Numbered from the stretch's first letter, positions 34,928 to 61,028 are shown. The stretch: DNA of 64,000 bases from Pyrinomonadaceae bacterium (GCA_035474235.1 DATINM010000051.1:40437-104436); one strand, 5' to 3'. Notes: generated by a model from the sequence alone, not told the origin. Numbers and translations: made by a program.

Positions 34928-36463
34928 TCAAATCCTCGACTGATGAAGCGCCGCGCGGCCCGCAATCTTCCAGCGGCTCGGCGGCGCTTGTGATTGTTGC
35001 TGCTCGGAGCCGCGTTGTTCCGGCTCGGAGTATGCGAGCGCGGCTGCGACGAGCGCAATGTCGCGGCGTTCGATCTCTTCCGCGCCCGGCCCGGCGTCGC
35101 TCATACGTGCCGCGTCGCGGCGCTCGTTGAATCGAGGGATGAAACCCGTGTCGAGTCGTCCGGCGACGAACTCCTCGTCGCGCATCACCTCGCGGAAGAA
35201 TGGGAGCGTCGTCTTGATGCCGCCGACCGAATACTCTGCGAGCGCGCGGCGCATTCGCTCGATTGCCTCAATGCGCGTACGCCCCCACGTTGCGAGCTTC
35301 GAGATAAGCGGGTCGTAGTAGATCGAGACCTCCGCGCCTTCATAGACGCCGCCGTCGTCGCGCACTCCGGGGCCGGCGGGCACGCGCAAACGTTCGATGT
35401 GTCCGGGCGAAGGCATGAAGTTCTGCTCCGGGTCTTCGGCATAGACGCGGCACTCGACGGCGTGGCCCGTCATGCGAACGTCGTCTTGAGTGAACGAGAG
35501 CGGGAGACCGGCGGCGACGCGAATCTGCTCGCGCACGAGGTCGAAGCCGGTGACGAGTTCCGTCACGGGATGCTCGACCTGAAGTCGCGTGTTCATCTCA
35601 AGGAAGTAGAAGTCGCGCGTCACGTCCGAGACGAGGAACTCGACCGTGCCCGCGCCGACGTAAGAGGCCGCGCGCGCGATCTCGATAGCCGCCGCGCCCA
35701 TCCGCGCGCGCAAAGACGAGTCGTTAATCGGCGAAGGGCATTCCTCGATGACCTTCTGATGCCTACGCTGAATCGAGCACTCGCGCTCGCCGAGGTGTAC
35801 GAAGCGTCCCTGCGTATCCGAGAAGATTTGAATCTCGACGTGGCGCGGGCGCTCGACCGCCTTCTCGATATAGACGGACGAATCGCCGAACGCGGACGCG
35901 GCCTCGGACTGCGCGGTCTCGAATGCCGAAGGCAGTTCGTCTTCGGATGCGACGAGCCGCATCCCTTTTCCGCCGCCGCCCGCAGCGGCCTTGAGCATGA
36001 TTGGATAGCCGACCGAGCGCGCGGTCTCGCGCGCATCGGCGATTGATGCGAGCGCCTCGGTCGCGCCCGGAACGACGGGCGCTCCGGCTGCGATTGCGGC
36101 GCGACGCGCGCTCGTCTTCGACCCCATCAACTCCATCGCTTCGGGCGAAGGGCCGATGAAGACGAGTCCGGCTTCATTCACCGCGCGCGCGAACTCTGCG
36201 TTCTCGGCGAGGAATCCGTAGCCGGGATGCACCGCCTCAGCGCCGCTCTTGAGCGCGGCGGCGATGACGCGTTCAATCCGCAGATAGCTCTCGACCGAGG
36301 GCGCGGGGCCGAGCAGATAAGCCTCATCCGCGAGCCGGACGTGAAGCGCCGCGGCGTCGGCCTCCGAGTAGACGGCGACCGCCGCGATGTCCAACTCGCG
36401 GCACGCGCGTATGACGCGCACGGCGATCTCGCCGCGGTTCGCTATGAGCATCTTCTTGAACAT
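34928..36463 (-). CDS. accC: Biotin carboxylase subunit of acetyl/acyl-CoA carboxylase
   Basis: MFKKMLIANRGEIAVRVIRACRELDI, GYPIMLKAAAGGGGKGMR, EMNTRLQVEHPVTE; full-length ATP-grasp biotin carboxylase. Confidence 0.92.
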   Translation of the reverse strand: MFKKMLIANRGEIAVRVIRACRELDIAAVAVYSEADAAALHVRLADEAYLLGPAPSVESYLRIERVIAAALKSGAEAVHPGYGFLAENAEFARAVNEAGLVFIGPSPEAMELMGSKTSARRAAIAAGAPVVPGATEALASIADARETARSVGYPIMLKAAAGGGGKGMRLVASEDELPSAFETAQSEAASAFGDSSVYIEKAVERPRHVEIQIFSDTQGRFVHLGERECSIQRRHQKVIEECPSPINDSSLRARMGAAAIEIARAASYVGAGTVEFLVSDVTRDFYFLEMNTRLQVEHPVTELVTGFDLVREQIRVAAGLPLSFTQDDVRMTGHAVECRVYAEDPEQNFMPSPGHIERLRVPAGPGVRDDGGVYEGAEVSIYYDPLISKLATWGRTRIEAIERMRRALAEYSVGGIKTTLPFFREVMRDEEFVAGRLDTGFIPRFNERRDAARMSDAGPGAEEIERRDIALVAAALAYSEPEQRGSEQQQSQAPPSRWKIAGRAALHQSRI

Positions 36464-36465
36464 GA

Positions 36466-36553
36466 AAGTGAGAGTGAAGAGTGATGAGTGATGAGTGATG
36501 AGTAAAAGACAGTTTGCCTTTACTCATCACTCTTCACTCATCACTCTTCACTT
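36466..36553. repeat. Heptamer-built hairpin (GTGATGA/GTGAAGA units) starting 2 nt from the accC start
   Basis: Left arm AAGTGAGAGTGAAGAGTGATGAGTGATGAGTGATGAGTAAA. The reverse complement of the right arm is AAGTGAAGAGTGATGAGTGAAGAGTGATGAGTAAA. Confidence 0.85.
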
Positions 36554-36564
36554 GGCCCTTCTCG

Positions 36565-36855
36565 TCAGACGACCACAGAGTTTCCCGGCTGGCGCGGGTT
36601 GAAGCGGACGGTGACGCTCGCGCCGGGGAAGTATTCGGTCGAGCGCTGGCGTTGATCGGGGTCGAGCGCTTGCGAAGACTCGTACTCGACGCCGTTGATC
36701 TGGTAGTTGTAGAAGACCTGTGTGATCGTGCCCGCGTCGTCGGTTATCACGTCGAAGATCGAGCCTTCCGTGATGCGCCCGGCGCGCAGCAGAGCGGCGC
36801 GGCGCGTTGCCTCGTCGTCCGACTTCTTCCGCCTGAATATGCTGAGAAATCCCAT
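36565..36855 (-). CDS. Small hypothetical protein (DUF3592-like beta-rich domain, tentative)
   Basis: 96-aa ORF with non-biased composition (..GSIFDVITDDAGTITQVFYNYQINGVEYESSQ..). No other ORF explains this interval. Confidence 0.5.
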   Translation of the reverse strand: MGFLSIFRRKKSDDEATRRAALLRAGRITEGSIFDVITDDAGTITQVFYNYQINGVEYESSQALDPDQRQRSTEYFPGASVTVRFNPRQPGNSVVV

Positions 36856-36895
36856 GTCCTTTAACGATTTTTGAAACGTTGTCGGCGATGCCGAA

Positions 36896-37816
36896 TCAGT
36901 TGGAGCGTTTGACGAAGACGGCGGGCGTCGCTTTCACCTTTGCCGCGGCGGGCAGGCCGTCGCCGATGACGCCGTCGCGTATCCGCAGGTCGTCGTCAGT
37001 GCCGAGCAAGCCGTCGCGTCCGGGCAGTACGACCTCGTAATTCGTGAGCACAATCCCTGCGTCGGGCAGGTCGGGCGCGGACGCCGCGCCGCGCAACTCG
37101 CTCACGCGACGACGACCGCGCGACTTCGAGCGCGCCGAAGAGAGCGAGGCGATGTCCGTCTCAGGCTTGTACTCTCCGGCCTCGACGCGCGCGAGCAGGC
37201 GCGCTATCGAACCGTCAGGGTCTTCGAGCCTTCGCAAATCTTCGAGCGCCGCCGGGTACGTGCCGAAGCGCTGGCGGTAGCGCATGAGCGCGAGGTCTGT
37301 CTCGTAGAGCACGGCGTTCTCCGCCGCGCGCCGCGCGAGTTCGCGCATGCGCAGACGTTCCGGCACGGTGACGCCGACGAGTACGGCGAGCGAGACGGCG
37401 ACCACTGCGGTCAGAGCGAGTCCGGCGCGCGCGCACCTGTGCCCGACGAAGCGCGTGTGCTCGCGGCTCATGCGCGAATAGAGCCGGCGGCATACGAGCG
37501 TGAGCGCGAACGCCGCGGGCAGCGCGCTCCACTTCAAGCTCCACGCAGCCGACTCGGCGGCGCGAAGGAGCGCGCGTGCGCCGAGCGAGAACGTTTCGCC
37601 TCGCGCGAGCGCCGAGACGAACGCGTAGGCGAACGCGAGCAGCAACAGAACGCCCGCCGCAGAGATCGCGAGCGCGTGGCCGTAGGTTGGAAGCTCTTGT
37701 TCCGGGCGCGCGAGCGGCGGCCCGACCGCGCGCGCGCCGCACGCGGCGCAGCCGTCGCACAACTCGCCGTCAAACTTTGCTCCGCAGCAGGGGCAGACCG
37801 TCAACGTTGCTTTCAC
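36896..37816 (-). CDS. Zinc-ribbon membrane protein, hypothetical
   Basis: N-terminal CPCCGAKFDGELCDGCAACG (two CxxC pairs), then 3-4 hydrophobic helices and a soluble C-terminal domain. Confidence 0.55.
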   Translation of the reverse strand: MKATLTVCPCCGAKFDGELCDGCAACGARAVGPPLARPEQELPTYGHALAISAAGVLLLLAFAYAFVSALARGETFSLGARALLRAAESAAWSLKWSALPAAFALTLVCRRLYSRMSREHTRFVGHRCARAGLALTAVVAVSLAVLVGVTVPERLRMRELARRAAENAVLYETDLALMRYRQRFGTYPAALEDLRRLEDPDGSIARLLARVEAGEYKPETDIASLSSARSKSRGRRRVSELRGAASAPDLPDAGIVLTNYEVVLPGRDGLLGTDDDLRIRDGVIGDGLPAAAKVKATPAVFVKRSN

Positions 37817-37835
37817 CTCGAAGAAAATGACGAGT

Positions 37836-37906
37836 GTTGAATGATGGATGCTGAATGTCGAGAACCGTGCTGCCTTTTATTCATCATTCATCATTCCGCA
37901 TTCATC
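37836..37906. repeat. Hairpin of the GATGAATG/CGGAATG unit type
   Basis: GTTGAATGATGGATGCTGAATG ... TTCATCATTCATCATTCCGCATTCATC. The right arm shares CCGCATTCATC with the element at 51800-51872. Confidence 0.65.
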
Positions 37907-37913
37907 GCTAAAG

Positions 37914-38798
37914 TCAGCGCGACGCAGGGACGCGGCGCGTCATGTCGGGCGCGCCCGGTCGCCCCGCGTCCGTGTTGGATGCGTCGCCGGTCGTTTGCGG
38001 TGCGCCGTTGCCGTCGGCGCGTCGCTGCGCGGAGGGCGGCGTCTGCGAAGCTTCGGAAATGGTTTGCGCCGTCGCCACGGCGCGCGACTCCGCTGCGTTG
38101 CGGTTCAACTCGCACCACGTGTGATAGACGCGGAAGGCGAAAGTCCAGAACGAGCCGACCGCGAGAACCCAGAGCACCGCGGGCATTCGATTGGCGAAGA
38201 TGCTGTTTGAGCTAGGGTGCGTCGAGAGCGCGCCGATGATCAGGAGCACGACGCGCTCCGGCCTGCGAAGAAATCCCACGTCGCACTTTGGTATCAGGCT
38301 CTCGGCGCGCGCCGAGGCGTAGGAGACGAGCACCGAGCCGGTCAACGCGAGTCCGGCCAGAAGGACGTTGACGGTCGAATGAAATTCGGTGTCGCGTGCA
38401 TAGAAGAGCATGAGGCCGACGAAGGCGGCCATGTCGGAGACGCGGTCGAGCGTGGAGTCGAGGAAGCCGCCGAAGCGCGTCACCTGATTGGTGAGCCGCG
38501 CGACCTGGCCGTCGAGCATGTCGAAGAGGTTTGCGACGATGAGGACTATTCCGGCCCAGAAAAAGTCGCCGAGGCCGAACATGAGGCCGCACAGGACGTT
38601 TATCAGAACGCCCGTCACGGTCAGAAGGTTCGGGTTGATCCTGCGCCGCGCGAGTCCCTGCACCATCGCGCTTATGATCCGCCCCGCGCCGCGCCCGATG
38701 CTCGCACCGAACAACTCTTGAAAGCCTTTCCCCGCGTGTCCCTGTAAGGACGCGGACGCGCCTCTTCGCGGGCGCTTTCGGTTTCGACGAGTCATCAT
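37914..38798 (-). CDS. CDP-alcohol phosphatidyltransferase family protein
   Basis: Motif DMLDGQVARL....FGGFLDSTLDRVSD fits D(x)2DG(x)2AR(x)8G(x)3D(x)3D. Multiple TM helices. Confidence 0.8.
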   Translation of the reverse strand: MMTRRNRKRPRRGASASLQGHAGKGFQELFGASIGRGAGRIISAMVQGLARRRINPNLLTVTGVLINVLCGLMFGLGDFFWAGIVLIVANLFDMLDGQVARLTNQVTRFGGFLDSTLDRVSDMAAFVGLMLFYARDTEFHSTVNVLLAGLALTGSVLVSYASARAESLIPKCDVGFLRRPERVVLLIIGALSTHPSSNSIFANRMPAVLWVLAVGSFWTFAFRVYHTWCELNRNAAESRAVATAQTISEASQTPPSAQRRADGNGAPQTTGDASNTDAGRPGAPDMTRRVPASR

Positions 38799-38877
38799 AG
38801 GAACGCGCCGGAAGGCTTGTCAAGGAACTCTATTGTCGTCACTCGTTTTCGCTCAAGATAGACGCGCGGCGTGAACT

Positions 38878-39333
38878 TCAACCGGCGCGATTCAAACGAC
38901 GAAAGATGACGCCCGCGAGCGAGCCTAGCACGACGCCGTAGAGTCCTGAGATGTAAGGGCTGCTGATGATGTTGACGAAGCCGCGAGACGACTCAGGCTT
39001 GAAGACGAGCGGGAGTAGAAAACTGAAGGCGGCTTCGGCGACTGCGAGGCCGAAAATCGCGCCCGCAAATGCTCCGAGCGTGCGGCCCGCGAGACGCGAA
39101 GACAGTCCGAGTAAAAGCCCGACCGCCGTGCCCGCCAAAAGGTCTGGCAAGAGGAACACGAAGAGGAGCATCAGCGGGAGGAATGTGAGCGCGGTGAGGA
39201 GCATCGCGAAAAGATCTCGCAGGCTCGCGGCGACCGCGACGACGCCCGCGACGTATGCGATTAGAAGCGTGGCGGCGGCGCTGATGATTCCCGCGACCCA
39301 TCCGAAAAGTACGCGCCGCGGCTCAGGCGTCAT
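38878..39333 (-). CDS. Small integral membrane protein, hypothetical
   Basis: Four hydrophobic helices. The start overlaps the greA stop by 4 nt (ATGA-type coupling). Confidence 0.5.
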   Translation of the reverse strand: MTPEPRRVLFGWVAGIISAAATLLIAYVAGVVAVAASLRDLFAMLLTALTFLPLMLLFVFLLPDLLAGTAVGLLLGLSSRLAGRTLGAFAGAIFGLAVAEAAFSFLLPLVFKPESSRGFVNIISSPYISGLYGVVLGSLAGVIFRRLNRAG

Positions 39334-39815
39334 CCGCTGTTCTCTTTTGTCTCGTCGTGCAGCGTCGTCAGCTTTTTGATCTCGAAGTTGCGCGTGCCCG
39401 CGGGCGTCGTGACTTTAATCTCGTCGCCCTCTTCGCGCCCCATTAAACTACGGCCTACGGGCGATGTCGTCGAGATCAGTCCGGCGGGGGGGTCGCTCTC
39501 TTCGGGCGTAACGAGCCGGTATGTAACTTCCTCTTCGCGCTCCGAGTCGTAGAGGACGAGCGTCGAGCCGTATGCGGCGCGGTCGTGCGGGACTTTCGAG
39601 AGGTCAATCGAAGAGAGTTCGCTGAGGCGCTGACGCAACTGCTGTATGCGCGCCTGCACGAACTGCTGGCGGGCGAGCGCCGCGTGATACTCGGCGTTCT
39701 CGCGCAGGTCGCCGAACTCCTTTGCGCGTTTGATCTCGCGCGGCAGGTGCACGTGCAACTCCTCGTCCAAAACGTTCAACTCCTGCTGAAGCTTCTGCCT
39801 GACTGCTTCGGTCAT
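39330..39815 (-). CDS. greA: Transcription elongation factor GreA
   Basis: EIKRAKEFGDLRENAEYHAALARQQFVQARIQQL...ISTTSPVGRSLMGREEGDEI is a canonical GreA sequence. Confidence 0.95.
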   Translation of the reverse strand: MTEAVRQKLQQELNVLDEELHVHLPREIKRAKEFGDLRENAEYHAALARQQFVQARIQQLRQRLSELSSIDLSKVPHDRAAYGSTLVLYDSEREEEVTYRLVTPEESDPPAGLISTTSPVGRSLMGREEGDEIKVTTPAGTRNFEIKKLTTLHDETKENSG

Positions 39816-40016
39816 CCTTCTCCTCCGCTCGCGTGGCTTGACTTCGTGTGATTATAACCAAGCCTTCGCCGCTCGCATAACCCGCCCGGCGCTCACGCTG
39901 CGTGAGCGACTTCCGGCGCACGCGCCGCCGCTGCGGTGCGAGGCTTGAGATGCGTTTGCGTGCGGCGAGCTTGAATCGCCTTGAATCGCGCGCAGTTTTT
40001 TACGACACTGGCACGC

Positions 40017-41186
40017 ATGGCCGAGCCTTCAATCACAGTGACGAAGCGCGGGGCGGAGCGCGTCCACGGCGGACACCTTTGGGTCTATCGCAGCGACGTG
40101 CGCGACGCGGGCGGCGCGGACGCAGGCTCGACCGTGTGCGTCCGGGACGAGCGCGGTCGGTTCGTCGGCCACGCTTTATATTCGGCGCGCTCCGAGATCG
40201 CCCTGCGTCTTCTGACGACGAAGGACGAGGCGGTTGAACGCGAGTGGTGGCGCGCACGGCTTCGCGCGGCTGCGTCGCGGCGCGCGGGGCTTGAGAATGA
40301 TGCGGACGCTTTCCGGCTCGTCTATTCGGAAGGCGACCTTATGCCGTCGCTGATCGTTGACCGCTACGCCGACGTGCTCGTCTTGCAGACGCTCTCGCAG
40401 GGGACTGAGGCGCTGAAGGAAATGTTAGTCGGGCTGCTCGTCGAGGAGTTCGCGCCGCGCTCAATCGTCGAACGCAACGACGTTCGCGTGCGCTCGCTCG
40501 AAGGTCTGCCGCTCCGTTCCGGCATCATCTACGGCGAAGCGCCCGGCGAGTTGGAGGTCGTGCAGCACGGCACGCGCCTGAGAGTCGCGCCGCTCGGCGG
40601 GCAGAAGACCGGCGCTTTTCTAGACCAGCGCGAGAATCACGTCGCCGCGCGTACGCACGCGCACGGGCGCGCGCTCGACTGCTTCACATTTGGCGGCGGC
40701 TTCGCGCTCTCGATTGCGCGGGCGTGCGAGAGCGTTCTCGGTCTCGACATCTCGGCGGAGGCGGTTGCGGCGGCGCGGCGCAACGCGGATTTGAACGGCG
40801 CGGCGAACGTCGAGTTCCGGGAGGCGAACGTCTTCGACGCGCTGCGCGAGTTGGAGTCGGCGGGCGAGCGATTTCAAACCGTCGTCCTCGATCCGCCCGC
40901 CTTCGCGAAGAACCGCGCGAGCGTCGCGGCTGCGGCGCGCGGCTACAAAGAGATCAACCTGCGCGCGCTCAAGATGCTCGAACGGGGCGGAGTGCTCGTC
41001 ACCTGCACGTGCTCGTACCACATGACCGAGCCTCTCTTCCTCGAACTCATCGCGGAGGCCGCCGCGGACGCGCGCCGCCGCGTGCAGATCGTCGAACGTC
41101 GAACGCAATCGGGCGACCACCCCGTCCTCGTCGGCGTGCCCGAAACGCTCTACCTCAAGTGCGTCGTCGCGCGCGTCATCGAGTGA
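40017..41186 (+). CDS. Class I SAM-dependent rRNA methyltransferase, RlmI/PUA type
   Basis: PUA-like N-terminus (RVHGGHLWVYRSDV), FLDQRENH, VLDPPAF, CTCS. The start was trimmed to the ATG at 40017. Confidence 0.85.
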   Translation: MAEPSITVTKRGAERVHGGHLWVYRSDVRDAGGADAGSTVCVRDERGRFVGHALYSARSEIALRLLTTKDEAVEREWWRARLRAAASRRAGLENDADAFRLVYSEGDLMPSLIVDRYADVLVLQTLSQGTEALKEMLVGLLVEEFAPRSIVERNDVRVRSLEGLPLRSGIIYGEAPGELEVVQHGTRLRVAPLGGQKTGAFLDQRENHVAARTHAHGRALDCFTFGGGFALSIARACESVLGLDISAEAVAAARRNADLNGAANVEFREANVFDALRELESAGERFQTVVLDPPAFAKNRASVAAAARGYKEINLRALKMLERGGVLVTCTCSYHMTEPLFLELIAEAAADARRRVQIVERRTQSGDHPVLVGVPETLYLKCVVARVIE

Positions 41187-41390
41187 GAGTCTCCAGCACC
41201 GTTTTGCCTTAACAGCATACCGGGTGTCTTCCCGCTGAAAATTCTGATTGAAATTCTCGCCGCGTTGGGAAGATAATGCCGCGCGTACGAGAGGACTTCG
41301 CCGGGGACGATTTTCCGCACGTCTCCCTCATGAACGCCGCTTAAGTTGAATGGTTCGCACACGGCCTTTTCGCCGGTGGAGGTTGATTAA

Positions 41391-42788: not shown

Positions 42789-42810
42789 AAAACATCCGTC
42801 GGAACACTTA

Positions 42811-42855
42811 GAATGAAAGACGGCACGGCGAGCATCACCGTGCCGTCTTTCATTC
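42811..42855. terminator. Perfect 18-bp-stem hairpin between convergent genes
   Basis: GAATGAAAGACGGCACGG / 9-nt loop / CCGTGCCGTCTTTCATTC, 22 nt after the stop at 42788. Confidence 0.7.
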
Positions 42856-42864
42856 ATCGCCACA

Positions 42865-42889
42865 CACTATGCACTTTCAGTGCATAGTG
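42865..42889. terminator. Second short hairpin in the same convergent spacer (glmS side)
   Basis: CACTATGCACT-TTC-AGTGCATAGTG, perfect 11-bp stem. Confidence 0.5.
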
Positions 42890-44798: not shown

Positions 44799-44879
44799 GC
44801 CGTGAACCTTGAACCGTGAGCCGTGACAAGTGAAGAATCGTTTTCATCTTGTCACTTGTCACGGTTCAAGGTTCACGGC
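44799..44879. repeat. Heptamer-built hairpin (CCGTGA/GTGACAA units) filling the glmU-glmS spacer
   Basis: Left arm GCCGTGAACCTTGAACCGTGAGCCGTGACAAGTGAAGAA. The reverse complement of the right arm is GCCGTGAACCTTGAACCGTGACAAGTGACAAGA. The right arm contains the glmU stop codon. Confidence 0.85.
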
Positions 44880-50092: not shown

Positions 50093-50683
50093 TCAGACCA
50101 GAGATTTAATCATCAGCAGTCCGTCGCCGCCGTTCGAGTAGTAGCGCGGAAGTCTCTGCGTGACGGCGAAGCCGCGCTTGATGTAAAGCTCCTGCGCGCC
50201 GGTGTTGACCGAGCGGACTTCGAGCCGGAGTATGCGAACGCGCCGTTTGCGAAACCCGTCTTCGACCTTGAGGAGCATACGCTGCGCGACGCCGCGCCTC
50301 CGGTGTTCGGGCGCGACGCCGAGCGTGGTGATGTGTCCGGTCGCGTCCGGCTCGACGATGCCGACGATGAATCCGACCATCGCGCCGTCCGCCGTCACGA
50401 CGCGGTACGAGACGGAGTCGGGCGACGTGAGAAGGTACTCGAAAGTCTCGCGGCTGTATGCTTCGCCGTCAACGAAGCAGCGCTGGTCGAGACGCCAGCA
50501 CTCGTCCAACTGCGCGACCGTGAGCGGGCGCACGTCGTAGCGCGTCTCCACGCCCGACGCCGCGCGCACGTCCCGCGCCTCTGCGTCCAACAGTGGGCCG
50601 CCATCCGCGACGCCGGACGAGAAAAGACGCGAGCGAATTTTTTTCAGCACGGCCATAAGGCTCAATAGCGGTGACGGGGACAA
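50093..50683 (-). CDS. GNAT-family N-acetyltransferase (RimI-like)
   Basis: HITTLGVAPEHRRRGVAQRML (acetyl-CoA Q/RxxGxG/A motif) and LEVRSVNTGAQELYIKRGF. Confidence 0.7.
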   Translation of the reverse strand: MSPSPLLSLMAVLKKIRSRLFSSGVADGGPLLDAEARDVRAASGVETRYDVRPLTVAQLDECWRLDQRCFVDGEAYSRETFEYLLTSPDSVSYRVVTADGAMVGFIVGIVEPDATGHITTLGVAPEHRRRGVAQRMLLKVEDGFRKRRVRILRLEVRSVNTGAQELYIKRGFAVTQRLPRYYSNGGDGLLMIKSLV

Positions 50684-50738
50684 GTGTCGAGTGACGGGCA
50701 GGATTTTATCTCGTCACTCGTCACTTGTCACTTGTCAC
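50671..50738. repeat. Hairpin of GTGACRR units in the queA-GNAT spacer
   Basis: GTGACGGGGACAAGTGTCGAGTGACGGGCA ... TCGTCACTCGTCACTTGTCACTTGTCAC. An imperfect stem. It overlaps the GNAT ORF-track start and the queA stop. Confidence 0.65.
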
Positions 50739-51793: not shown

Positions 51794-51799
51794 GATAAA

Positions 51800-51872
51800 T
51801 GATGAATGCGGAGTGATGGATGATGAATTATAAAAGCAGACCGGCTTCACATTCATCACTCCGCATTCATCA
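51800..51872. repeat. Hairpin (GATGAATGCGGAGTGATG units) filling the yihY-queA spacer
   Basis: Left arm TGATGAATGCGGAGTGATGGATGATGAAT. The reverse complement of the right arm is TGATGAATGCGGAGTGATGAAT. The left arm has an extra GATGAT-type unit. Confidence 0.85.
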
Positions 51873-51876
51873 ATTT

Positions 51877-52862: not shown

Positions 52863-54881
52863 TCAGCGCGTGGTCGCGGCAGTCGTGCCGGGACTTTTCC
52901 TGAGCGCCGCCCTCGCCGCGGCCAGCAGCGCGGCGGCCCGCACCTCTTCGTCTTTGAAATTGCGCGCCTCAGCGAACGTCCGCGCCGCGTCGAGCTTTGC
53001 CGCAGCCGCGAACACGTCCGGCAACTTCGTAGGGGCGTCCGGGATGTCGAGGGCGTAAGGTATTTTGTCTTCCGGACTGAGGATGAACTCGAAGAACAGC
53101 GCGTCGAAACGCAGGTCGTCCGACTCGTTTGCCGCGCCGACGAGCATTGGTAAAAACTCCCATAGGCGAGTGGCGTCGGCTCGCGCCGCCGAGAGGGCTA
53201 CGAGCGAGAGTGCGGTCGCGCGCTCTGTTCCGCGCTCGGCCTGCGCGGCGTAGCCCGTCGCCTCCGTTAGCAGTTCGCCCGCGCGCGCGCGTTTGCCGCC
53301 GCGCGATGCGAGTTCGGCGGCCTGAGCAAGCCCGACCGCGCGCACTTCGGGCGGCACGTCCGCGGCGCGCACGAGGTCAGCCGCGCGCTCGAAGGCATCG
53401 CCCTCGTCCGACTCGAAAGAGTGCGAGATGTCCATAACCTGCCGGATCGCGATGCCGAGACGCGCGCCGCGCCGCACCTCCGCGTCCTCGATCTCGGCGG
53501 CGATGTTGCGCGCGCGATCCCAGAGCCTTCCGTGTGCCGCACTCATCACAACATAGAGCCGCGCTGAGTCGCGCTCGACCGTGTTTTGCGCGCGAGATAT
53601 TTCGTCCATCCCGCCGGCGAGCGGGTCAGCCGGGTTTTTGGGCGACAGGCTGTTCACGTCCATCCTTGACGTGAGTGAGTCGCGAAGGCCGGGGGCGAGT
53701 TCCGAGGCGAGCGCCGCCATTCGCGCGTTCAAGGCGGGCGCGTACTGCGGAGCGTCGCGCTCGAAGAAGGGGAGAAGGTGGCCGGCGGCGTAGTAGCGGG
53801 CTGCCGTCTCCTCGTCCTGTCCTCCGTCGGCGCTTGGAACGGGCGGGCGCAGCAGCACGGAGGCCGCCGCCTCGAAGAATGCGCCGCGCACCTGTGCGGA
53901 GATTGGCGCAAGCTTTTCCTCGTCGCCGATGCGACCTATGAAAGCGAAATTTGTCGAGCCGTCGCCCCTGACGTATGTGTAAAGGCTTGGCGAGACGATG
54001 GGCGAAGCGAGAAGCAGGATGTCGTTTGCGTCCGTGCCCGCGTCCGCGCGTGTCGCTTCGATGAGATGCAGGTAGAGCGCGTCGGCGGTGTGCGCGTCTT
54101 GCGCGCGTAGGCTGTTGATGAAAGCGAGAAGCATCTGCGTCGGCCCTTCGGCGACTACAGGCGCGGCCATCTCGGCGGCGCTCTTGAAATCTCCTTCGGC
54201 GAGCAGTTGGTCGGCGACGGCGAGGCGCTGGAAACCTGCGGGACTCAGGCTGCGCTCCTTGTGTGGCGGCGATTCTTCGTTGTCAGTCTGCCCGTCTTGT
54301 TTTGTCGAATCCTGTTCGCCGCCCTGCGACGTAGCCGATTGTTTGTCGGAGTCACGCACCAGATCGCGGACGAATGTGTCGGCGAGGCGCGAGTCGTGTT
54401 TCGCGGCTGCCTTGATGATGAAGTGGCGCGCGGCCGTCAGCACTTCCTGCGCAGCTTCTTTCGGATCGCTGGTGCTTTCCAGACCGGGAATCTTATTTTC
54501 AACCCCCGGAGCGGTCGCTGACTCCCACGCGCGGCGAAGGATTGCGCGCGCCGCCTGCTCGTCGTAGGGCCAGAGCGCGTCGGCGGCTTCCGACTGAACG
54601 AACGCAACCTCGTAGATGTCGTCGAAAGAGCGCGCCGCGTCCGCCACTTCGCGCAACGCTGCGACCGCATCGCGCACGTCTCGCGCTTTGCGCGCCGCAT
54701 CCGCGTCCGTTTTTCTTTTCGCTCCCTGTTTTGTTTGTGTGGTGTGCTTCGTGCCTGGCTGTGGACGCGGCGATGCGGAGTCACTTCCTTTGGGCGACTG
54801 CGCGCGAGCGACATTTAAGGAGATGCACGCAAGAAGCGCGACGGAGAAGAGTCTGAATGTGTGAGGCCGACGGAGTTTCAT
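52863..54881 (-). CDS. Secreted Ala-rich alpha-helical hypothetical protein
   Basis: Signal peptide (FRLFSVALLACISLNVARAQ). 672 aa with ordinary composition and no recognised motif. Confidence 0.55.
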   Translation of the reverse strand: MKLRRPHTFRLFSVALLACISLNVARAQSPKGSDSASPRPQPGTKHTTQTKQGAKRKTDADAARKARDVRDAVAALREVADAARSFDDIYEVAFVQSEAADALWPYDEQAARAILRRAWESATAPGVENKIPGLESTSDPKEAAQEVLTAARHFIIKAAAKHDSRLADTFVRDLVRDSDKQSATSQGGEQDSTKQDGQTDNEESPPHKERSLSPAGFQRLAVADQLLAEGDFKSAAEMAAPVVAEGPTQMLLAFINSLRAQDAHTADALYLHLIEATRADAGTDANDILLLASPIVSPSLYTYVRGDGSTNFAFIGRIGDEEKLAPISAQVRGAFFEAAASVLLRPPVPSADGGQDEETAARYYAAGHLLPFFERDAPQYAPALNARMAALASELAPGLRDSLTSRMDVNSLSPKNPADPLAGGMDEISRAQNTVERDSARLYVVMSAAHGRLWDRARNIAAEIEDAEVRRGARLGIAIRQVMDISHSFESDEGDAFERAADLVRAADVPPEVRAVGLAQAAELASRGGKRARAGELLTEATGYAAQAERGTERATALSLVALSAARADATRLWEFLPMLVGAANESDDLRFDALFFEFILSPEDKIPYALDIPDAPTKLPDVFAAAAKLDAARTFAEARNFKDEEVRAAALLAAARAALRKSPGTTAATTR

Positions 54882-54919
54882 TGCTCAAGACCTCCGAGGA
54901 AAATTATTCAGTAAAAAGA

Positions 54920-55966
54920 TTATTCCGAGTCGAAGAGTCCGGGGCGTTGAGTTTGTTGTTGCGGGGGCGCGATGCCGAAGTGCTCGTAGGCGAGGCGCGT
55001 GGCGGTGCGGCCTCGCGGCGTGCGGTTGAGGAAGCCGATCTGAATCAGATATGGCTCGATGATCTCCTCGATTGAGTCCTTCTCTTCTTGCAGCGCGGCG
55101 CTCATGTGGTTGAGGCCGACGGGGCCGCCCATGTGCTGCTGAATAATCATCAGCAGCATTTTTCTGTCCATCTCGTCGAGGCCGAAGGTGTCAACCTCCA
55201 TCCGGTTCAAGGCGTCGTCGGCGACCTCTTTTGTGATGCGACCGTCGTGCTCGACCTCTGCGTAGTCGCGCACGCGCCGGAGCAGGCGGTTCGCTATTCG
55301 CGGTGTGCCGCGTGCGCGGCGGGCAATCTCGCGCGCGCCGCCGTCGTCGATCTCCGTGTCGAGTATGTCGGCGGAGCGTCGGACAATCGTTGCGAGTTCG
55401 TCGTGCGTGTAGAAGTTGAGGTGAAAAGTTATCCCGAAGCGACCGCGCAAAGGTGCTGTGATGAGTCCCGGTCGCGTCGTCGCACCGACCAGAGTGAACT
55501 TCGGGAGGTCGAGTTTTATCGAGCGCGCGGCGGTGCCTTGCCCGATCATTATGTCGAGTTGGTAGTCCTCCATCGCCGGGTAGAGGACTTCCTCAATCGC
55601 GGGGGCCATCCGGTGAATCTCGTCGATGAAGAGTACGTCGCCTTCCTGAAGGTTCGTGAGTATGGCCGCGAGGTCGCCGGGCTTTTCGATGACGGGGCCG
55701 GCGGTCGAGCGAAGCTCCGCGTCCATCTCGTTGGCGATGATGACGGACAGTGTGGTCTTGCCGAGTCCGGGCGGGCCTGTAAGTAAAACGTGGTCGAGCG
55801 CCTCGTGCCGCTTGCGCGCGGCGCGTATGAAGATGCCGAGGTTCTCGGTCGCCTTCCGCTGGCCGATGTACTCCGCGAGACGAGTCGGCCTGAGCGAAAG
55901 CTCGAACTGCCGCTCGTCTTCCGTCGGCTTCGACTCGCGCACGCTTACGGGATCGGGGTCAGACAT
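54920..55966 (-). CDS. ruvB: Holliday junction branch migration helicase RuvB
   Basis: [50 protein letters not shown]. The start was trimmed to the ATG at 55966. Confidence 0.97.
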
Positions 55967-55973
55967 AAAAGCC

Positions 55974-56070
55974 TGTGAATGGTGAATGGTGAATGGTAAA
56001 TGGTGAATGATGAATGGTGGCGTGACCGGCGCGGTTATCAATTCGCCATTTACCACTTACTATTTACCAG
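55974..56070. repeat. Hairpin of GGTGAAT units filling the ruvA-ruvB spacer
   Basis: TGTGAATGGTGAATGGTGAATGGTAAATGGTGAATGATGAATGGTGG ... CGCCATTTACCACTTACTATTTACCAG. The left arm is about 20 nt longer than the right. Confidence 0.7.
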
Positions 56071-56073
56071 CCT

Positions 56074-56697
56074 TCATCCTTTCGAGAGTTGCCGCAAAGA
56101 GCGTCGCAGGAGCGTCTCGACGGAGAGTTCGCCGCCCTCGCTCATTGCCTGCGCGACGGTCTTCTCTGCTGCCGGACGCGGGAAGCCGAGTTGCAGGAGC
56201 GCCGCAAGCGTGTCCTCGCGCAGAGAGTCTTCCGACTGTCGCGCCCCTGCGGCGACGCCCGCCGCTATCTCTTCGTCGAGAGCGGGCGAACTGAGCGCGG
56301 CCATCTTGTCGCGCAGTTCGATGACGAGCCGCTCGGCGGTCTTGCGCCCGACGCCGGGGATCGAGGTCAGGCGCGCGTAGTTGTTCGTTCGGATCGCCAT
56401 GATGATCTCGTCGGCGCTCATGCCCGATAGCATCGCGACGGCTGACTTGGGGCCGATGCCGCTCACCGAGATCAGAAGCGTGAAGAGTTCGCGCTCGCGC
56501 TCGGTTCGGAAGCCGAAGAGTTGGAGCGCGTCCTCGCGGACGTGCGTGTAGATTCTGAGCTTGACGGGCGCGCCCGCGTCGCCTAGATCGTAGAACGTCG
56601 TGACGGGTATCGTCACTTCGTAGCCGACGCCTCCAACGTCAACGATGACGCTCGTCGCGTGCTTCGCCAGAAGAGTCCCTGATATGTGTGCGATCAT
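56074..56697 (-). CDS. ruvA: Holliday junction DNA-binding protein RuvA
   Basis: MIAHISGTLL......VIVDVGGVGYEV, LISVSGIGPKSA.AMLS, L..IPGVGRKTAERL. Confidence 0.95.
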   Translation of the reverse strand: MIAHISGTLLAKHATSVIVDVGGVGYEVTIPVTTFYDLGDAGAPVKLRIYTHVREDALQLFGFRTERERELFTLLISVSGIGPKSAVAMLSGMSADEIIMAIRTNNYARLTSIPGVGRKTAERLVIELRDKMAALSSPALDEEIAAGVAAGARQSEDSLREDTLAALLQLGFPRPAAEKTVAQAMSEGGELSVETLLRRSLRQLSKG

Positions 56698-56814
56698 CTA
56701 AATTGCTTTGACGGGAGAAGAGATTTCGAGAGCGCCTCACGTACTCGTCGGATTTTAGATGAAGGCAGAGGGTTCGGCAAACGTGCGTCGGTCGCGCGTG
56801 TTGGGAAAGATGAG

Positions 56815-57177
56815 TTACCGGGCGTGTTCGGATTCGAGCTTGTCCATGCGGCCTTCGAGTCGGTTCTGGTCTGCGCGAAGCGTGAGCATGTCGAGGCCAA
56901 GCACGTTCAGCTTACGAGCCATCGTGTCAACCTTCTCGCCGACAGCCATAATCTCTGCAAGCGCGCGTTCCCAAATCGGCTTCGTTTCCATTGCCCTTCG
57001 TTGCGCATCGTCCTCAAGTTTTTGAACGCGCGCGTCTAAGTCGTGAAGCTTCGACTCGACGGCTTCGAGCCGCTTCTCCATTCTGTCGAAGCGCGCATCC
57101 AGTGCGTCGAAGCGTGCGAACACGCGCTCCTCGAAGGAGCGTTCGTCGTTGAGGTCTTTGGTTTTCTCTTCGCCCAT
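56815..57177 (-). CDS. Coiled-coil hypothetical protein
   Basis: 120 aa with heptad-like repeats (RFDALDARFDRMEKRLEAVESKLHDLDARVQKLEDD). Confidence 0.5.
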   Translation of the reverse strand: MGEEKTKDLNDERSFEERVFARFDALDARFDRMEKRLEAVESKLHDLDARVQKLEDDAQRRAMETKPIWERALAEIMAVGEKVDTMARKLNVLGLDMLTLRADQNRLEGRMDKLESEHAR

Positions 57178-57323
57178 AGCGTGATTATGAACCTCGATGC
57201 AATTCTGTTCAAGAGTTGTGCGGGAATCTCAGGCCGCAGCGAGTCTCGGACTCACGCGTCTTTTCTACGCAGCCTCGCGCGCGTTATACTTGGGCCGGTC
57301 TTCCCGGAGAGCAGGGCATTCGG

Positions 57324-58040
57324 ATGAAGTCTGAGAAAATTTCTGAGTTGACGACGAGCAGGTTGAGCGTCTATCTGCGCTGCCTGAATCTTCTCGCCGC
57401 CGCCGGGGTGAAGACCGTCTCGTCGCAGGCGCTCGCAGACCAGTTCCGCCTGAACTCGGCGCAGATACGCAAAGACCTCGCCCACTTCGGCGAGTTCGGC
57501 ACGCGCGGCGTCGGCTACTCGGTCGAAGAGCTTCGCCGCCACCTTACGCAGATTCTCGGCCTCGACCGCGCACACAGGGTCGGCATCGTCGGCGCAGGCA
57601 ACCTTGGGACTGCGCTCGCAAACTACAGAGGCTTCGGCGAGTCGAGCTTCGAGGTCGTCGCGCTCTTCGACAACGACCGCGGGAAGATCGGGCGCGAGGT
57701 CGGGCAGGCGCGAGTCCGCGTCTTCGACGTTAAGACGCTCGCGCGCGTCGTTCGCGAACGCGAGATTGACGTTTCGGTCGTCGCCGTTCCGGCGCGCGCC
57801 GCACAGCGCGTGTTGAATCAAATCATGTCGGCTGGCGTAAAGGCCGTCTTGAATTTTGCGCCCGTCCGCCTTCACGCGCGTTTGGGCGTGAAGGTGAAGA
57901 CGGTTGACTTGACGATTTCTTTGGAGTCACTATCGTACTTCCTCGCGCGACCTCAGATAACTTGCGTCACGAACCCGCGCGGCCTTCTCTACTTCGAGGA
58001 GACGGCTCAGCGCGAAGAACAAGAGTTGCAGCAAAGCTGA
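57324..58040 (+). CDS. rex: Redox-sensing transcriptional repressor Rex
   Basis: RLSVYLRCLNLL...VSSQALAD.F.LNSAQIRKDLAHFGEFGTRGVGYSVEEL, then Rossmann motif VGIVGAGNLGTALANY. The start was trimmed to the ATG at 57324. Confidence 0.9.
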   Translation: MKSEKISELTTSRLSVYLRCLNLLAAAGVKTVSSQALADQFRLNSAQIRKDLAHFGEFGTRGVGYSVEELRRHLTQILGLDRAHRVGIVGAGNLGTALANYRGFGESSFEVVALFDNDRGKIGREVGQARVRVFDVKTLARVVREREIDVSVVAVPARAAQRVLNQIMSAGVKAVLNFAPVRLHARLGVKVKTVDLTISLESLSYFLARPQITCVTNPRGLLYFEETAQREEQELQQS

Positions 58041-58057
58041 CAAGGAGTTCAGAAGTC

Positions 58058-58516
58058 ATGCATCCCTGCTTGCTAAAAAAACTTTTGCCGTTCGCTTTAA
58101 CTTTCATCGTCGGCGCGACGATTGGCGGGCTGTTCAAGTCTCGCGTGACGACGCAGACTTCGACGGAGCGCACGACGCTGATGATTGACCACAACGGCTA
58201 CGGCCATAGTTGCCGGATGTACCGCCGCGACCTCGTAGCTGAGACGAAGCCGCTCGTCATTTTCTTTAAGCCCGACGCCTTGTTGTCATACAGGGAAGAG
58301 ATGGGTAAAGAGGGAAGAAACACTGTATCAGTGAATGTGACCTTCGGCGCTGACGGAAAAGTGCAAAAGGTCGAGAATCTTCCGCCATTGATGCCTGACG
58401 TAATGAAACAGGCTGTCGAGCGCGCAGCGCGGCAGATTCAGTTCACGCCGGAGATAATCAACAGTGTGCCCATCACCGTCACGAGAGAAGTCGAGATACA
58501 TTTCATGACCGACTGA
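58058..58516 (+). CDS. Membrane-anchored protein with a TonB-C-like C-terminal domain (tentative)
   Basis: N-terminal TM segment (LLPFALTFIVGATIGGLF). The C-terminus, VNVTFGADGKVQKVENL....AVERAARQIQFTPEIINSVPITV, resembles the TonB C-terminal fold. Confidence 0.45.
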   Translation: MHPCLLKKLLPFALTFIVGATIGGLFKSRVTTQTSTERTTLMIDHNGYGHSCRMYRRDLVAETKPLVIFFKPDALLSYREEMGKEGRNTVSVNVTFGADGKVQKVENLPPLMPDVMKQAVERAARQIQFTPEIINSVPITVTREVEIHFMTD

Positions 58517-58542
58517 TCGGCTGTGAAGTTGGACGAATCCTG

Positions 58543-59364
58543 ATGGACGAGCAGACAGCCCGGCGCGAGATCGTGCGCGTCGGCAAGTTGATGTACGAGC
58601 GTTCATACGTCGTCTCTTCGGACGGCAACGTGAGCGTGCGCCTCGAAGACGGTCGCATACTCGCCACGCCGACGCAGACCTCGAAGGGACGCATGACGGA
58701 AGACTCGCTCGCCGTCACCGACATCGAAGGCAAGCCCTTGAACGACCGCCGCGCGTCGTCGGAGCTTGCGATGCACCTTCTCATCTACCGCGAGCGCGAA
58801 GACGTTCGCTCGGTCTGCCACGCGCATCCGCCGCACGGCTCGGCCTTCGCCGTCGCCGGACTCGCGATTGACCAGCCGATTCTCTCCGAAGTTATCTTAA
58901 CTCTCGGTTGCGTCCCGCTCGCAGAGTACGGCACGCCCTCGACCGACGAGTTGACCGAGGCGATGCGCCCGCTCGTCCGGCACCACAACGCTCTGCTGAT
59001 GGCGAATCATGGCGCGGTCGCATACGGCGCGGATTTGTGGCAGGCTTTCGACCGGCTCGAAACACTCGAACACACGGCGAAGATCGCCATCCTCGCGCGA
59101 ACGCTCGGCGGCGCGCGCAACCTCCCGCCCGACTCGATTGAGAAACTGATCAACGTCCGCGAGAAGGCCGGATACCTCGACGAAAGCGCGCGCTGCCAGT
59201 CGTGCGGCTACCTGCACGAGACGCAAGTGGTTTGCCCCTTGGGCGAGCGCGACGCGGCGCAAGCCACGCGCGCGGCGAACGGCGCGGGCGCGAACGGCAA
59301 GATAAGTCTGACGCGTGAAGAGTTGATAGAGCTTCTCAGTCAGGCGTCGCGGGCCGCGAGGTGA
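58543..59364 (+). CDS. Class II aldolase/adducin-family enzyme with a C-terminal extension of about 60 aa
   Basis: S.DGNVSVR, TPTQTSKG.MT, SSELAMHLLIYRERED..SVCHAHPPHG and LMANHGAVAYG show the Zn-His pattern of class II aldolases. The tail carries CQSCGY..VVCP and ends in the amphipathic ISLTREELIELLSQASRAAR. Confidence 0.8.
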   Translation: MDEQTARREIVRVGKLMYERSYVVSSDGNVSVRLEDGRILATPTQTSKGRMTEDSLAVTDIEGKPLNDRRASSELAMHLLIYREREDVRSVCHAHPPHGSAFAVAGLAIDQPILSEVILTLGCVPLAEYGTPSTDELTEAMRPLVRHHNALLMANHGAVAYGADLWQAFDRLETLEHTAKIAILARTLGGARNLPPDSIEKLINVREKAGYLDESARCQSCGYLHETQVVCPLGERDAAQATRAANGAGANGKISLTREELIELLSQASRAAR

Positions 59365-59540
59365 GAGCCGGTGAAGTCGCGGCGACGGGTCGAAGACAAA
59401 TTCATCAAGGCGTCTAATCACGCATCGGATCACTTCGGGTTCTGCCTCACACATCGCTTCGCAAAAGGAGGCTCGACATCCCTAGCCGCCTGCTCAAACA
59501 GTCCGAGATTGACTTCGCGCGACAGGTCTTCGAGGATCAG

Positions 59541-59987
59541 TTGCCGTATAACAAGGTGCATCTGGCGAGTTACTATCTGCCCGGCAATCAGGGCATCGCC
59601 GTCACGCTCGCGTCCGTCTCGACGCTGATCCCCGTGCGCTCTTTGAGGAACTACACGATCTACTTCGGCCCGGACGTTTTCCGCGACGGCGCGGATCGCC
59701 CCGGCGTGCGCGACACCTTCATACACGAGCTTACGCACGTGTGGCAGGGATACAACGGCGGACTCGGCTGGGAGTACATGGTCGAGTCCATGATCGCGCA
59801 GGGGCACGCCGTCATCACGCGGGGCGACCGGAATCGCGCTTACGACTACAAGCCCGGCGCGGACTGGAACAGCTACAACGTCGAGCAACAGGCGCTCATC
59901 GTGCAGGACTGGTTCCAAAACGGCATGAGGGAAGACGACGAAAGATATTCTTACGTCGTCAACAACATTCGCGCAGGCCGGAATTAA
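59541..59987 (+). CDS. Small HExxH protein (DUF4157-like metallopeptidase fold, tentative); the true start is probably upstream
   Basis: FIHELTHVWQG preceded by ...VHLASYY....GIAVTL.....YTIYFGPDVF. The frame is open back to 59418, with AAGGAGG at 59465-59471. Confidence 0.55.
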   Translation: MPYNKVHLASYYLPGNQGIAVTLASVSTLIPVRSLRNYTIYFGPDVFRDGADRPGVRDTFIHELTHVWQGYNGGLGWEYMVESMIAQGHAVITRGDRNRAYDYKPGADWNSYNVEQQALIVQDWFQNGMREDDERYSYVVNNIRAGRN

Positions 59988-60082
59988 CCGTCAGTTCGGA
60001 AAATTGATGCGAGGCTCATAACGCACGGCGCTTCCGACTGCGAAACGAGAGCAGCCGCACTCCTGCTCGCCTCCCGGCGCTC

Positions 60083-60325
60083 ATGTTTGATAGGATACTC
60101 AACGTCATCTTTCTGTTTGCGGGTAACGCGGCGTTCTGGCTGCTGATTCTAAGCAGGCGTGCGCGAAGATTCGTCATCAAAGGTTGGATAAGAAGATACG
60201 GGACGAATGATGCCGGAGAAGAGATCAAGACGGGCGAACTCGTTATCCTCTGCATGGCGGTCGTAGGCGAAATGGCTTTCATCCTGTTGACGGTCGCCGT
60301 CATCTTCGGATTCTTGAGAAGATAA
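60083..60325 (+). CDS. Possible small two-TM membrane protein
   Basis: 80-aa ORF with two hydrophobic segments (ILNVIFLFAGNAAFWLLIL and LVILCMAVVGEMAFILLTVAVIFGF). It is AT-richer than its surroundings and has no clear SD. Confidence 0.35.
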   Translation: MFDRILNVIFLFAGNAAFWLLILSRRARRFVIKGWIRRYGTNDAGEEIKTGELVILCMAVVGEMAFILLTVAVIFGFLRR

Positions 60326-60387
60326 CGTCGCCCGCGCTGAGACGAGGAAAGCATTTTCAAATTAACTTTGGTTAAGGAGCACATCGA

Positions 60388-60672
60388 ATGCCTCAAGAAG
60401 CACTCGGAATGGTCGAGACGAAGGGACTCGTGGCGATGATCGAGGCCGCGGACGCGATGGTGAAGGCTGCGAACGTCACGCTCGTCGGCTACGAGAAGAT
60501 CGGCGCGGGCTTCGTTACGGCAATCGTGCGCGGCGATGTTGCGGCTGTGAAGGCCGCGACCGACGCCGGAGCGGCAGCCGCACGCCGTGTCGGCGAACTC
60601 GTCAGCGTCCACGTCATCCCGCGCCCGCACGGAAGCGTTGACGAGGCGCTTCCGGTCGGCGGCGACAGATAA
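60388..60672 (+). CDS. Bacterial microcompartment shell protein, single-BMC-domain hexamer type (BMC-H)
   Basis: [76 protein letters not shown] is a canonical PduA/EutM/CcmK-like sequence. AAGGAG SD. Confidence 0.92.
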
Positions 60673-60676
60673 AAGC

Positions 60677-60750
60677 AGTGATAAGTGATGAGTGATGAGT
60701 GATAAGAAGAAAGCTTTTAACTCATCACTCATCACTCATCACTCATCACT
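60677..60750. repeat. Heptamer-built hairpin (GTGATGA/GTGATAA units) filling the BMC-H / BMC-P spacer
   Basis: AGTGATAAGTGATGAGTGATGAGTGATAAGAAG ... CTCATCACTCATCACTCATCACTCATCACT. Same unit family as the elements at 6152 and 36466. Confidence 0.85.
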
Positions 60751-60755
60751 TTCCA

Positions 60756-61028
60756 ATGATTATCGCGCGCATACTCGGAACGGTCGTCTCGACGCAGAAG
60801 GACGAGCGGCTGAAGGGCAACAAGCTCCTTCTCGTCCGGCCCCTGAACCTCGACGGCTCGGACGGCGCAGGCTACGTCGTCGCCGTCGATACGGTCGGCG
60901 CGGGATTCCACGAACGCGTGCTTGTCGTCGCAGGCTCCAGCGCGCGACTCGCCGAAGGCTTGAAGGACAAGCCCGTTGACGCCGCCATCATCGGCGTCAT
61001 CGACACTGTGGATTTCGTTAACGATTAG
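60756..61028 (+). CDS. BMC vertex pentamer protein (EutN/CcmL family, BMC-P) paralog 1
   Basis: MIIARILGTVVSTQKDERLKGNKLLLVRPL...VAVDTVGAGFHERVLVVAGSSAR......VDAAIIGVIDTVD. The start was trimmed to the ATG at 60756. Confidence 0.87.
   Translation: MIIARILGTVVSTQKDERLKGNKLLLVRPLNLDGSDGAGYVVAVDTVGAGFHERVLVVAGSSARLAEGLKDKPVDAAIIGVIDTVDFVND

Follow-up and report, generated by a model that had tools for sequence, protein, structure and literature searches.

Long hairpins occupy operon junctions throughout the genome of a Pyrinomonadaceae bacterium, beginning at the stop codon of one gene and often ending just before the start codon of the next. A ruvB search put this genome with Acidobacteriota, next to metagenome-assembled genomes of Blastocatellia/Pyrinomonadaceae. 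We analyzed a 64 000-nt stretch of this genome (the window, contig C51:40437-104436 of a 4.735 Mb assembly with 113 contigs and 62.5% GC) together with the rest of the assembly and related genomes. Ten hairpins in the window, every one between co-directional genes, have arms built from tandem 7-nt units. Those preceding accC, pyrH, queA, ruvB, and the shell gene BMC-P end a few nucleotides before starts that lack a Shine-Dalgarno (SD) sequence. The pattern of stop-anchored hairpins between operon genes is real and was confirmed genome-wide. We favor, with somewhat more confidence than doubt, the reading that these hairpins are self-folding palindromic repeat elements tolerated in tight operon junctions, where the downstream gene would still depend on the upstream one.

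Spacer-filling hairpins in the window

Hairpins were located by an inverted-repeat search and by folding every junction on the transcribed strand. Gene identities and N-termini came from NCBIfam profile matches, which bore out the names frr, pyrH, tsf, rpsB, rpsI, accC, glmS, glmU, queA, yihY, ruvB, ruvA, BMC-H, and BMC-P; alignments began at residue 1 for accC, queA, BMC-P (EutN/CcmL type), glmS, and ruvA. The ten hairpins are listed below in window coordinates (ORF, open reading frame).

6151..6222, minus strand: pyrH/frr hairpin, units AGTGATA/AGTGATG; pyrH ends at the first TGA in the 5′ arm
6971..7060 (arms 6976-7056), minus strand: tsf/pyrH hairpin, units AGTCCGG/AGTCTCC; upstream stop TAA
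9126..9211, minus strand: rpsI/rpsB hairpin, units GTTTTCA; a second stem comes next, then a true SD for rpsB, AAGGAGG
36466..36552 (arms 36473-36552), minus strand: 96-aa ORF/accC hairpin, units AGTGAAG/AGTGATG
37826..37902, minus strand: hairpin between a CDP-alcohol phosphatidyltransferase gene and a 306-aa ORF, weaker, units ATGATGA/ATGCGGA
44799..44879, minus strand: glmU/glmS hairpin, units CCGTGAA/CTTGAAC; glmU stop inside the 5′ arm
50671..50738, minus strand: queA/GNAT (rimI-like) hairpin, units AGTGACA/AGTGACG; queA TGA inside the first unit
51797..51875, minus strand: yihY/queA hairpin, units TGATGAA/TGCGGAG; yihY TAA pairs at the stem base
55974..56070 (arms 55980-56069), minus strand: ruvA/ruvB hairpin, units TGGTGAA/TGGTAAA; TGA 4 nt before the foot
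60677..60750, plus strand: BMC-H/BMC-P hairpin, units AGTGATA/AGTGATG; TAA 4 nt before the foot

The spacers at these junctions measure ~70-180 nt, and most are filled by the hairpin, leaving scant room for a promoter. Hexamers resembling -35/-10 elements were not seen in the 3′ arms by eye, with no formal scan, and promoters in the loops are judged unlikely. Folding energies of the junctions range from -32 to -99 kcal/mol (about -70 kcal/mol for the tsf/pyrH hairpin with its flanks), and essential genes, accC and pyrH among them, begin 2-9 nt past stems of -32 to -70 kcal/mol. Between the 96-aa ORF and accC, the arms are 34 nt long and 97% complementary, with the upstream TGA 12 nt ahead of the arm. 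The loops of the window hairpins carry no ORF, and an Rfam scan of the window at the gathering score matched no family. An exact-protein look-up of BMC-P returned one Logan contig, broken at the hairpin.

An earlier note on this DNA, made from the sequence alone, had placed stop and start codons at the two feet of spacer-filling hairpins, and this proved true of every junction it named. Upstream stops touch or overlap the 5′ foot, as it had described for all of these but tsf: those of pyrH, glmU, and queA fall within the first repeat unit of the following hairpin, and those of yihY, ruvA, tsf, and BMC-H lie 0-6 nt ahead of the foot. On the other side, the starts of accC, pyrH, BMC-P, queA, and ruvB follow the 3′ foot by 2-13 nt, depending on weak extension pairs. 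The foot-to-start distances it had listed were borne out with this latitude. The accC ATG (36463) is 9 nt past the perfect arm, or 1-2 nt when the weaker GAAGG/CTTTC pairs are counted; the pyrH ATG (6967-6965) is 8 nt past the foot, or 4 nt with a TTTA/TAAA extension; and the ATGs of BMC-P (60756), queA (51793), and ruvB (55966) follow by 5, 3-6, and 7-13 nt, respectively.

All five starts are preceded by pyrimidine-rich sequence without an SD core (e.g. CTCACTTTC-ATG for accC and CTCTAAAAAA-ATG for pyrH), in agreement with the lack of a purine-rich SD already reported for accC, queA, ruvB, and BMC-P. Only accC and ruvB among them show, by eye, a weak AAGG motif 5′ of the stem. Clear SDs are indeed found elsewhere in the window, including AAGGAGG before rpsB and AAGGAG before BMC-H itself. 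For frr, glmS, and rpsB the SD is placed 3′ of the hairpin (GGAGAGAG for frr; AAAGGAAAG for glmS, 19 nt downstream of the glmU/glmS hairpin foot).

A genome-wide class with a seven-nucleotide period

Hairpins with stems of 18 bp or longer number 584 across 4.7 Mb, compared with 17 per 1.64 Mb in dinucleotide-shuffled contigs, and chance is excluded as their source. A lag-7 identity of at least 0.7 defined the period-7 class, to which 233/584 belong; every other period accounted for at most 4 cases. With genes called genome-wide by a simple home-made caller, 173 of the 233 lie between co-directional genes, 22 between convergent and 7 between divergent genes, 26 are 'genic', and 5 lie at contig edges. 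The genic hairpins all sit at gene edges (26/26) and are mostly start miscalls running into the stop-free 3′ arm.

The class is anchored on the upstream stop. Genome-wide, the distance from stop to 5′ foot has a median of 3 nt (interquartile range -2 to 7), and that from 3′ foot to start a median of 12 nt (6 to 24). Stop anchoring is equally tight when the next start is near, when it is far, and in convergent spacers; the 34 hairpins more than 40 nt from the next start are as stop-anchored as the rest.

The stems are near-perfect duplexes of 25-37 bp with an arm GC content of 40% in this 62.5% GC genome. Their units fall into families, the most frequent being AGTGATG/A (~105 copies), AGTTCAA (31), GGATGAA (~22), and AGTTTTC (19). 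Per-copy statistics exaggerate significance, given the non-independence of copies that share a unit family. In the AGTGATG family a common apical motif, GAGTTAAAGGCA-N3-TGCCTTTAACTC, caps the arms (seen by eye, uncounted; examples at window 36500-36525, C22:42375-42439, and C29:8468-8541). Judged from these sequences, the motif points to common descent of the AGTGATG copies over independent slippage. Recurring unit families, a shared apical motif, and low arm GC are together the behavior of dispersed elements. The arms are also polar: the purine-rich arm comes first in 150/171 hairpins, independent of the strand read, and stops in all three frames are present in 87/173 of the 5′ arms vs 25/173 of the 3′ arms.

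Several further features of the repeats were observed. The T-rich families (AGTTTTC, AGTTCAA) often have as upstream stop a TAG composed of a flanking T and the arm's initial AG. Of the 5′ arms, 64% contain 5 nt or more of the extended SD UAAGGAGGUGAUC (GTGAT, AAGGA, or GGTGA), compared with 14% of unit-shuffled arrays and 0% of 3′ arms; the 3′ arms instead resemble the 16S 3′ tail. The SD-like pattern is seen in 3/5 large families, whose copies are not independent (e.g. window 60677-60713 and 36473-36506). (AGTGATG)n also reads as chained mini-ORFs (AUG AGU GAU GAG UGA), in which each stop overlaps the next AUG (UGAUG) and GUGAU lies 5 nt ahead. A perfect 28-bp hairpin at window 5465-5524 (GCAAACACGAAGGGCACGAAGAAAGAGT/complement, 4-nt loop), between a convergent 1019-aa gene and frr, is not 7-periodic by the lag-7 criterion, although CACGAAG is present twice.

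Start regions, junction geometry, and relatives

SD use was measured empirically because the anti-SD tail of the 16S rRNA was not found in the assembly: the only 16S rRNA gene (C78:1-1476, two matches) is cut by the contig end near model position 1387. Of all called starts, 35% have an SD core (GGAG, GAGG, or AGGA at -18 to -4), the background being 12%; the cores peak clearly in position, and 65% of the genes in the genome lack one. Among genes starting less than 15 nt past a hairpin foot, the fraction with a core drops to 5/102 (p = 6e-13 vs 35%); it is 15/28 at 15-25 nt and 13/30 from 60 nt upward. In-frame starts with an SD lie further downstream in 15% of the close-set SD-less genes vs 18% of other SD-less genes, so the deficit is no start-calling artefact. 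Close-set genes start with ATG in 79% of cases, vs 63% overall.

The missing SD has two apparent sources. It is mostly pre-existing, because most genes in this bacterial family lack an SD, and partly geometric, because the pyrimidine-rich 3′ arm occupies the SD window. Comparison with relatives is in line with the former: across some twenty genera of the family, queA lacks an SD whether or not a hairpin is present, and so do accC in five relatives and ruvB in most. Across these genomes, the missing SD of queA, accC, and ruvB is ancestral and older than the hairpins.

Once the hairpin is discounted, the junctions are tight. Linear stop-start gaps are 63-118 nt in most cases; in-silico excision of the hairpin leaves a median gap of 9 nt. 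Excised gaps are 25 nt or shorter in 117/173 junctions, a length found in only 25% of all co-directional gaps, and hairpins are ~3-fold enriched at such otherwise tight junctions. SD-like 4-mers within 18 nt 5′ of the 5′ foot occur at 34% of hairpins vs 14% of ordinary gene ends (p = 2e-6). After excision an SD core falls within the usual SD range upstream of the start in 21/81 cases (26%; background 12%, p = 5e-4), compared with 37% of hairpin-free junctions of 0-20 nt, a difference indicating that an upstream SD-like motif only mildly disfavors lodging of a hairpin between motif and start. Post-excision SD spacings vary widely: most are 8-13 nt, and others cluster at 19-20 nt. That SD-like motifs come back into range after excision is as expected if the folded stem loops itself out.

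Related genomes show the same junctions with other repeats. The ruvA/ruvB, yihY/queA, accC, tsf/pyrH, and pyrH/frr junctions carry hairpins with different units across genera. Feet and start codons remain 0-12 nt apart, and there is conservation of short flanking stretches such as GCTTTTATG. In more distant, hairpin-free relatives, ruvA and ruvB are ~2 nt apart or overlap (L009-L011), or are separated by ~20 nt (L014). The glmU/glmS spacer of a same-genus genome (G025, locus L126) is GC-rich, ~260 nt long, and free of heptamer hairpins, compared with 93 nt in the window, so spacer content turns over. Upstream of queA, accC, and pyrH in three further loci (L095, L117, L124), the hairpin of one family is nested in the loop of another family's hairpin, an arrangement that suggests repeated insertion at one junction.

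The glmU C-terminal tail at L126 differs from that of the window glmU. The window accC (34928-36463) encodes 511 aa and the profiles stop near residue 445-450, leaving a ~60-aa C-terminal extension. The 96-aa ORF (36565-36855), at the site expected for accB, had no NCBIfam match.

Proposed origin, possible translation routes at the stems, and significance

The hairpins may be gene-less relatives of cassettes that carry a PF05635 gene ('23S rRNA intervening-sequence protein'), and they resemble the short tandemly repeated repetitive (STRR) sequences of cyanobacteria. An intact PF05635 gene (C96:52317-52752, 124.8 bits) lies between inverted TGGTAAA/TGGTGAA arrays, whose unit family is that of the window ruvA/ruvB hairpin. 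This cassette stands between two co-directional genes; the PF05635 gene has its own GGAGG SD, and the downstream neighbor has no SD, its ATG lying 4 nt past the foot. At ~C23:5940-6400, a convergent spacer contains a decayed copy, which is frameshifted and has AAGGCAAA arms. In Coxiella, a 23S rRNA intervening sequence bearing PF05635 is excised by RNase III (PMC4990558). The likeness consists of inverted repeats around a PF05635 ORF, represented here by one intact heptamer-armed copy. The difference is one of location and content: all PF05635 and hairpin copies lie between protein-coding genes, in mRNA spacers and not in helices of the 23S rRNA, and nearly all are gene-less. An origin from repetitive extragenic palindromic (REP) sequences and their REP-associated tyrosine transposase (RAYT) was rejected, as the sole PF01797 (Y1 transposase) gene (C8:5044-5382) is flanked by another palindrome and not by heptamer arms. 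The region around it (C8:4850-5500) has the appearance of a classical RAYT/REP locus, the transposase gene standing between inverted palindromes that are GC-rich and carry a GTAG head (GTAGCCCACGGCG...); the GC-rich GTAGCCCACGG palindrome beside the gene has only 3 copies in the genome.

We hypothesize that the elements lodge just 3′ of stop codons and are retained chiefly where operon genes are tightly spaced. An element may sometimes supply the upstream stop itself, because its purine-rich 5′ arm has TGA, TAA, or TAG in all three frames. Lodging at stops combined with self-folding would yield the filled spacers whose feet both abut coding sequence. Self-pairing of the element would return its flanks, in the folded RNA, to their pre-insertion places, with stop and start ~9 nt apart. 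At roughly one junction in four, an SD-like motif located 5′ of the 5′ foot, in or close to the end of the upstream gene, would be back at roughly working distance from the start. A ~29-bp stem that ends 2-9 nt ahead of a start should keep a free 30S subunit from binding, so that unmasking by a ribosome, passage over the stem base, or removal by RNase III is needed. We rank unmasking first, because reading a stop 3 nt from the foot opens a few base pairs and no new ribosome behavior is needed: a ribosome terminating at the 5′ foot would melt the stem base and free the start region (RNA-unfolding coupling). Transfer of the ribosome across the stem base is a possible variant. We infer that the downstream cistron remains dependent on upstream translation; coupling across the stem is plausible.

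Several points weigh against this reading of tolerated, self-folding elements. Termination at the stop would melt just a few of the stem's ~29 bp. Sense-strand mismatches revealed no asymmetry indicative of RNA-level selection (G.U 144 vs A.C 136), in a test that is weak since many mismatches stem from A/G unit variants in shifted register. Neither target-site duplications nor extra flank complementarity exceeded the permuted expectation, defined element ends were not found across the hairpin copies, and no transposition enzyme was linked to the hairpins (the Y1 transposase was checked). Mobility is suggested by dispersal and by presence or absence among relatives only, and in-situ birth of the hairpins by slippage is possible. 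Lastly, the genome-wide foot distances depend on the gene caller, unlike those of the window cases, which are anchored by NCBIfam alignments.

Other explanations start from the same geometry. The earlier note had proposed termination-reinitiation across the folded stem, with the genes uncoupled in the unfolded state. In such a model a terminating ribosome (30S or 70S) would cross the stem base to the start while the hairpin stays folded, as a bacterial counterpart of ribosome shunting. Its geometric part stands: folding brings stop near start, with a through-stem median of 9 nt and 97/102 close-set starts lacking an SD. The preference for ATG (79% vs 63% overall), the ~3-fold enrichment at otherwise tight junctions, and the retention of this geometry at the same junctions in many genera despite replaced stem sequence fit as well. 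Published cases show that coupling needs no SD and that it weakens with linear distance (PMC12548453, PMC6728339). What did not hold is that the hairpins are built for reinitiation. Stem quality is the same in every context (identity 0.92 in tight vs 0.918 in loose contexts, with equal folding energy per nt), length being the sole difference (29.4 vs 26.6 bp), and around a quarter of the hairpins have no nearby start. The sense strand has no G.U excess, the missing SD is older than the hairpins, and the same arm design brackets the PF05635 gene. The linear closeness of reinitiation pairs is also absent, as stop and start are ~9 nt apart only with the hairpin discounted. Moreover, a stop 3 nt from the stem base forces melting, so the 'folded' state is perturbed at termination, and we know of no bacterial precedent for a post-termination ribosome crossing a stem base. 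We regard termination-reinitiation as improbable. Still less probable is the broader proposal that a ribosome at the 5′ foot crosses the stem base or relays through the 5′ arm to the SD-less start at ~100 junctions here and in related genera; in the relay variant, the GUGAU-N5-AUG mini-cistrons of (AGTGATG)n could step the ribosome into the stem.

Cleavage by RNase III, which would split the polycistronic RNA, leave part of the stem on the upstream 3′ end, and give the downstream cistron a short, unstructured, SD-less leader to be translated independently, is unlikely, but less so than a crossing ribosome. Near-perfect duplexes of 25-37 bp are suited to it, an RNase III gene is present (C56:4420-5097), and the arm design recurs around the PF05635 gene of this genome, the type of ORF carried by the intervening sequence that RNase III excises in Coxiella (PMC4990558). 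Hairpins without a following start would also fit a role in RNA processing or 3′-end stability. However, cleavage is known from rRNA copies, and cutting in mRNA spacers would be an extension by analogy; cutting leaves unexplained why the 3′ foot is so frequently less than 15 nt from a start, and the cut downstream gene would still lack an SD and have a 5′ monophosphate in addition. Intrinsic terminators or attenuators that set transcript levels within operons could explain hairpins directly 3′ of stops, 22 of them between convergent genes. This is a very remote prospect and we rejected the terminator reading: T-tracts follow the hairpins in just 9% of cases, and at 40% GC the arms are AT-rich. 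The hairpins also lie inside obligatory operons such as ruvAB, 2-13 nt from the next start, and convergent spacers are dominated by non-periodic, GC-richer hairpins (119 vs 22).

Aspects of the tolerated-element reading have parallels in known systems. In phage T4, folding of an intervening hairpin restores working spacing between the AUG of genes 25 and 38 and an SD in or near the end of the upstream gene, as at the gene 26-25 intercistronic junction (PMC3014915); comparably, an SD-like motif is in range at 26% of the close-set junctions here after excision. The T4 stems are short, reducing the spacing from 22 to 5 nt and from 27 to 11 nt, and are single specific cases (PMC3014915), unlike the 25-37 bp stems of repeats here, at ~100 junctions and mostly without an SD on either side. 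RNA-unfolding and scanning/reinitiation models of translational coupling have been described, and SD-less coupling is documented (PMC12548453, PMC6728339). The junctions here share with them co-directional genes, a structure-masked start, and an upstream stop that places a terminating ribosome against that structure. In known reinitiation, however, stop and start are adjacent or overlap linearly, whereas here they are 70-95 nt apart and adjacent through the stem only. The translational side is a variation on translational coupling and the split ribosome binding site.

Heptanucleotide repeats as such are already known in bacteria. No long simple repeat is commoner there than the heptamer, according to Mrazek 2007 as quoted in PMC4679880. 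In Beggiatoaceae, TAACTGA repeats are intergenic and near starts, with canonical SDs rare beside them (PMC4679880). As in STRR sequences, the 233 hairpins are tandem 7-nt arrays in intergenic DNA. STRR and TAACTGA repeats are mostly direct, single-unit arrays, whereas the arrays here are inverted, belong to several unit families, and are anchored on the upstream stop; units and host phylum also differ from those of cyanobacterial STRR sequences (PMC4679880). The literature searched contained no description of inverted heptamer arrays filling operon junctions from stop to start. REPs and bacterial interspersed mosaic elements (BIMEs) of enterobacteria are likewise dispersed imperfect palindromes in transcribed operon spacers, often near stops. 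In 2015, Liang, Rudd and Deutscher reportedly found that REPs within ~15 nt of a stop can affect upstream translation. The heptamer hairpins have no GTAG head, their arms are tandem repeats, and, unlike REPs, which do not as a rule abut the next start codon, they often do.

Because accC, pyrH, ruvB, queA, and the shell genes start without an SD 2-13 nt past very stable stems, the cell needs some initiation route. Whichever route applies, be it unmasking, transfer, or RNase III, it would show tolerance of hundreds of structured operon insertions and would tie the long-unexplained heptamer repeats of bacteria to translation. If true, coupling across the stem would stretch translational coupling past its known short linear distances. 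Stem crossing or relay, if true, would amount to a widespread, repeat-encoded coupling across structured spacers of 70-95 nt.

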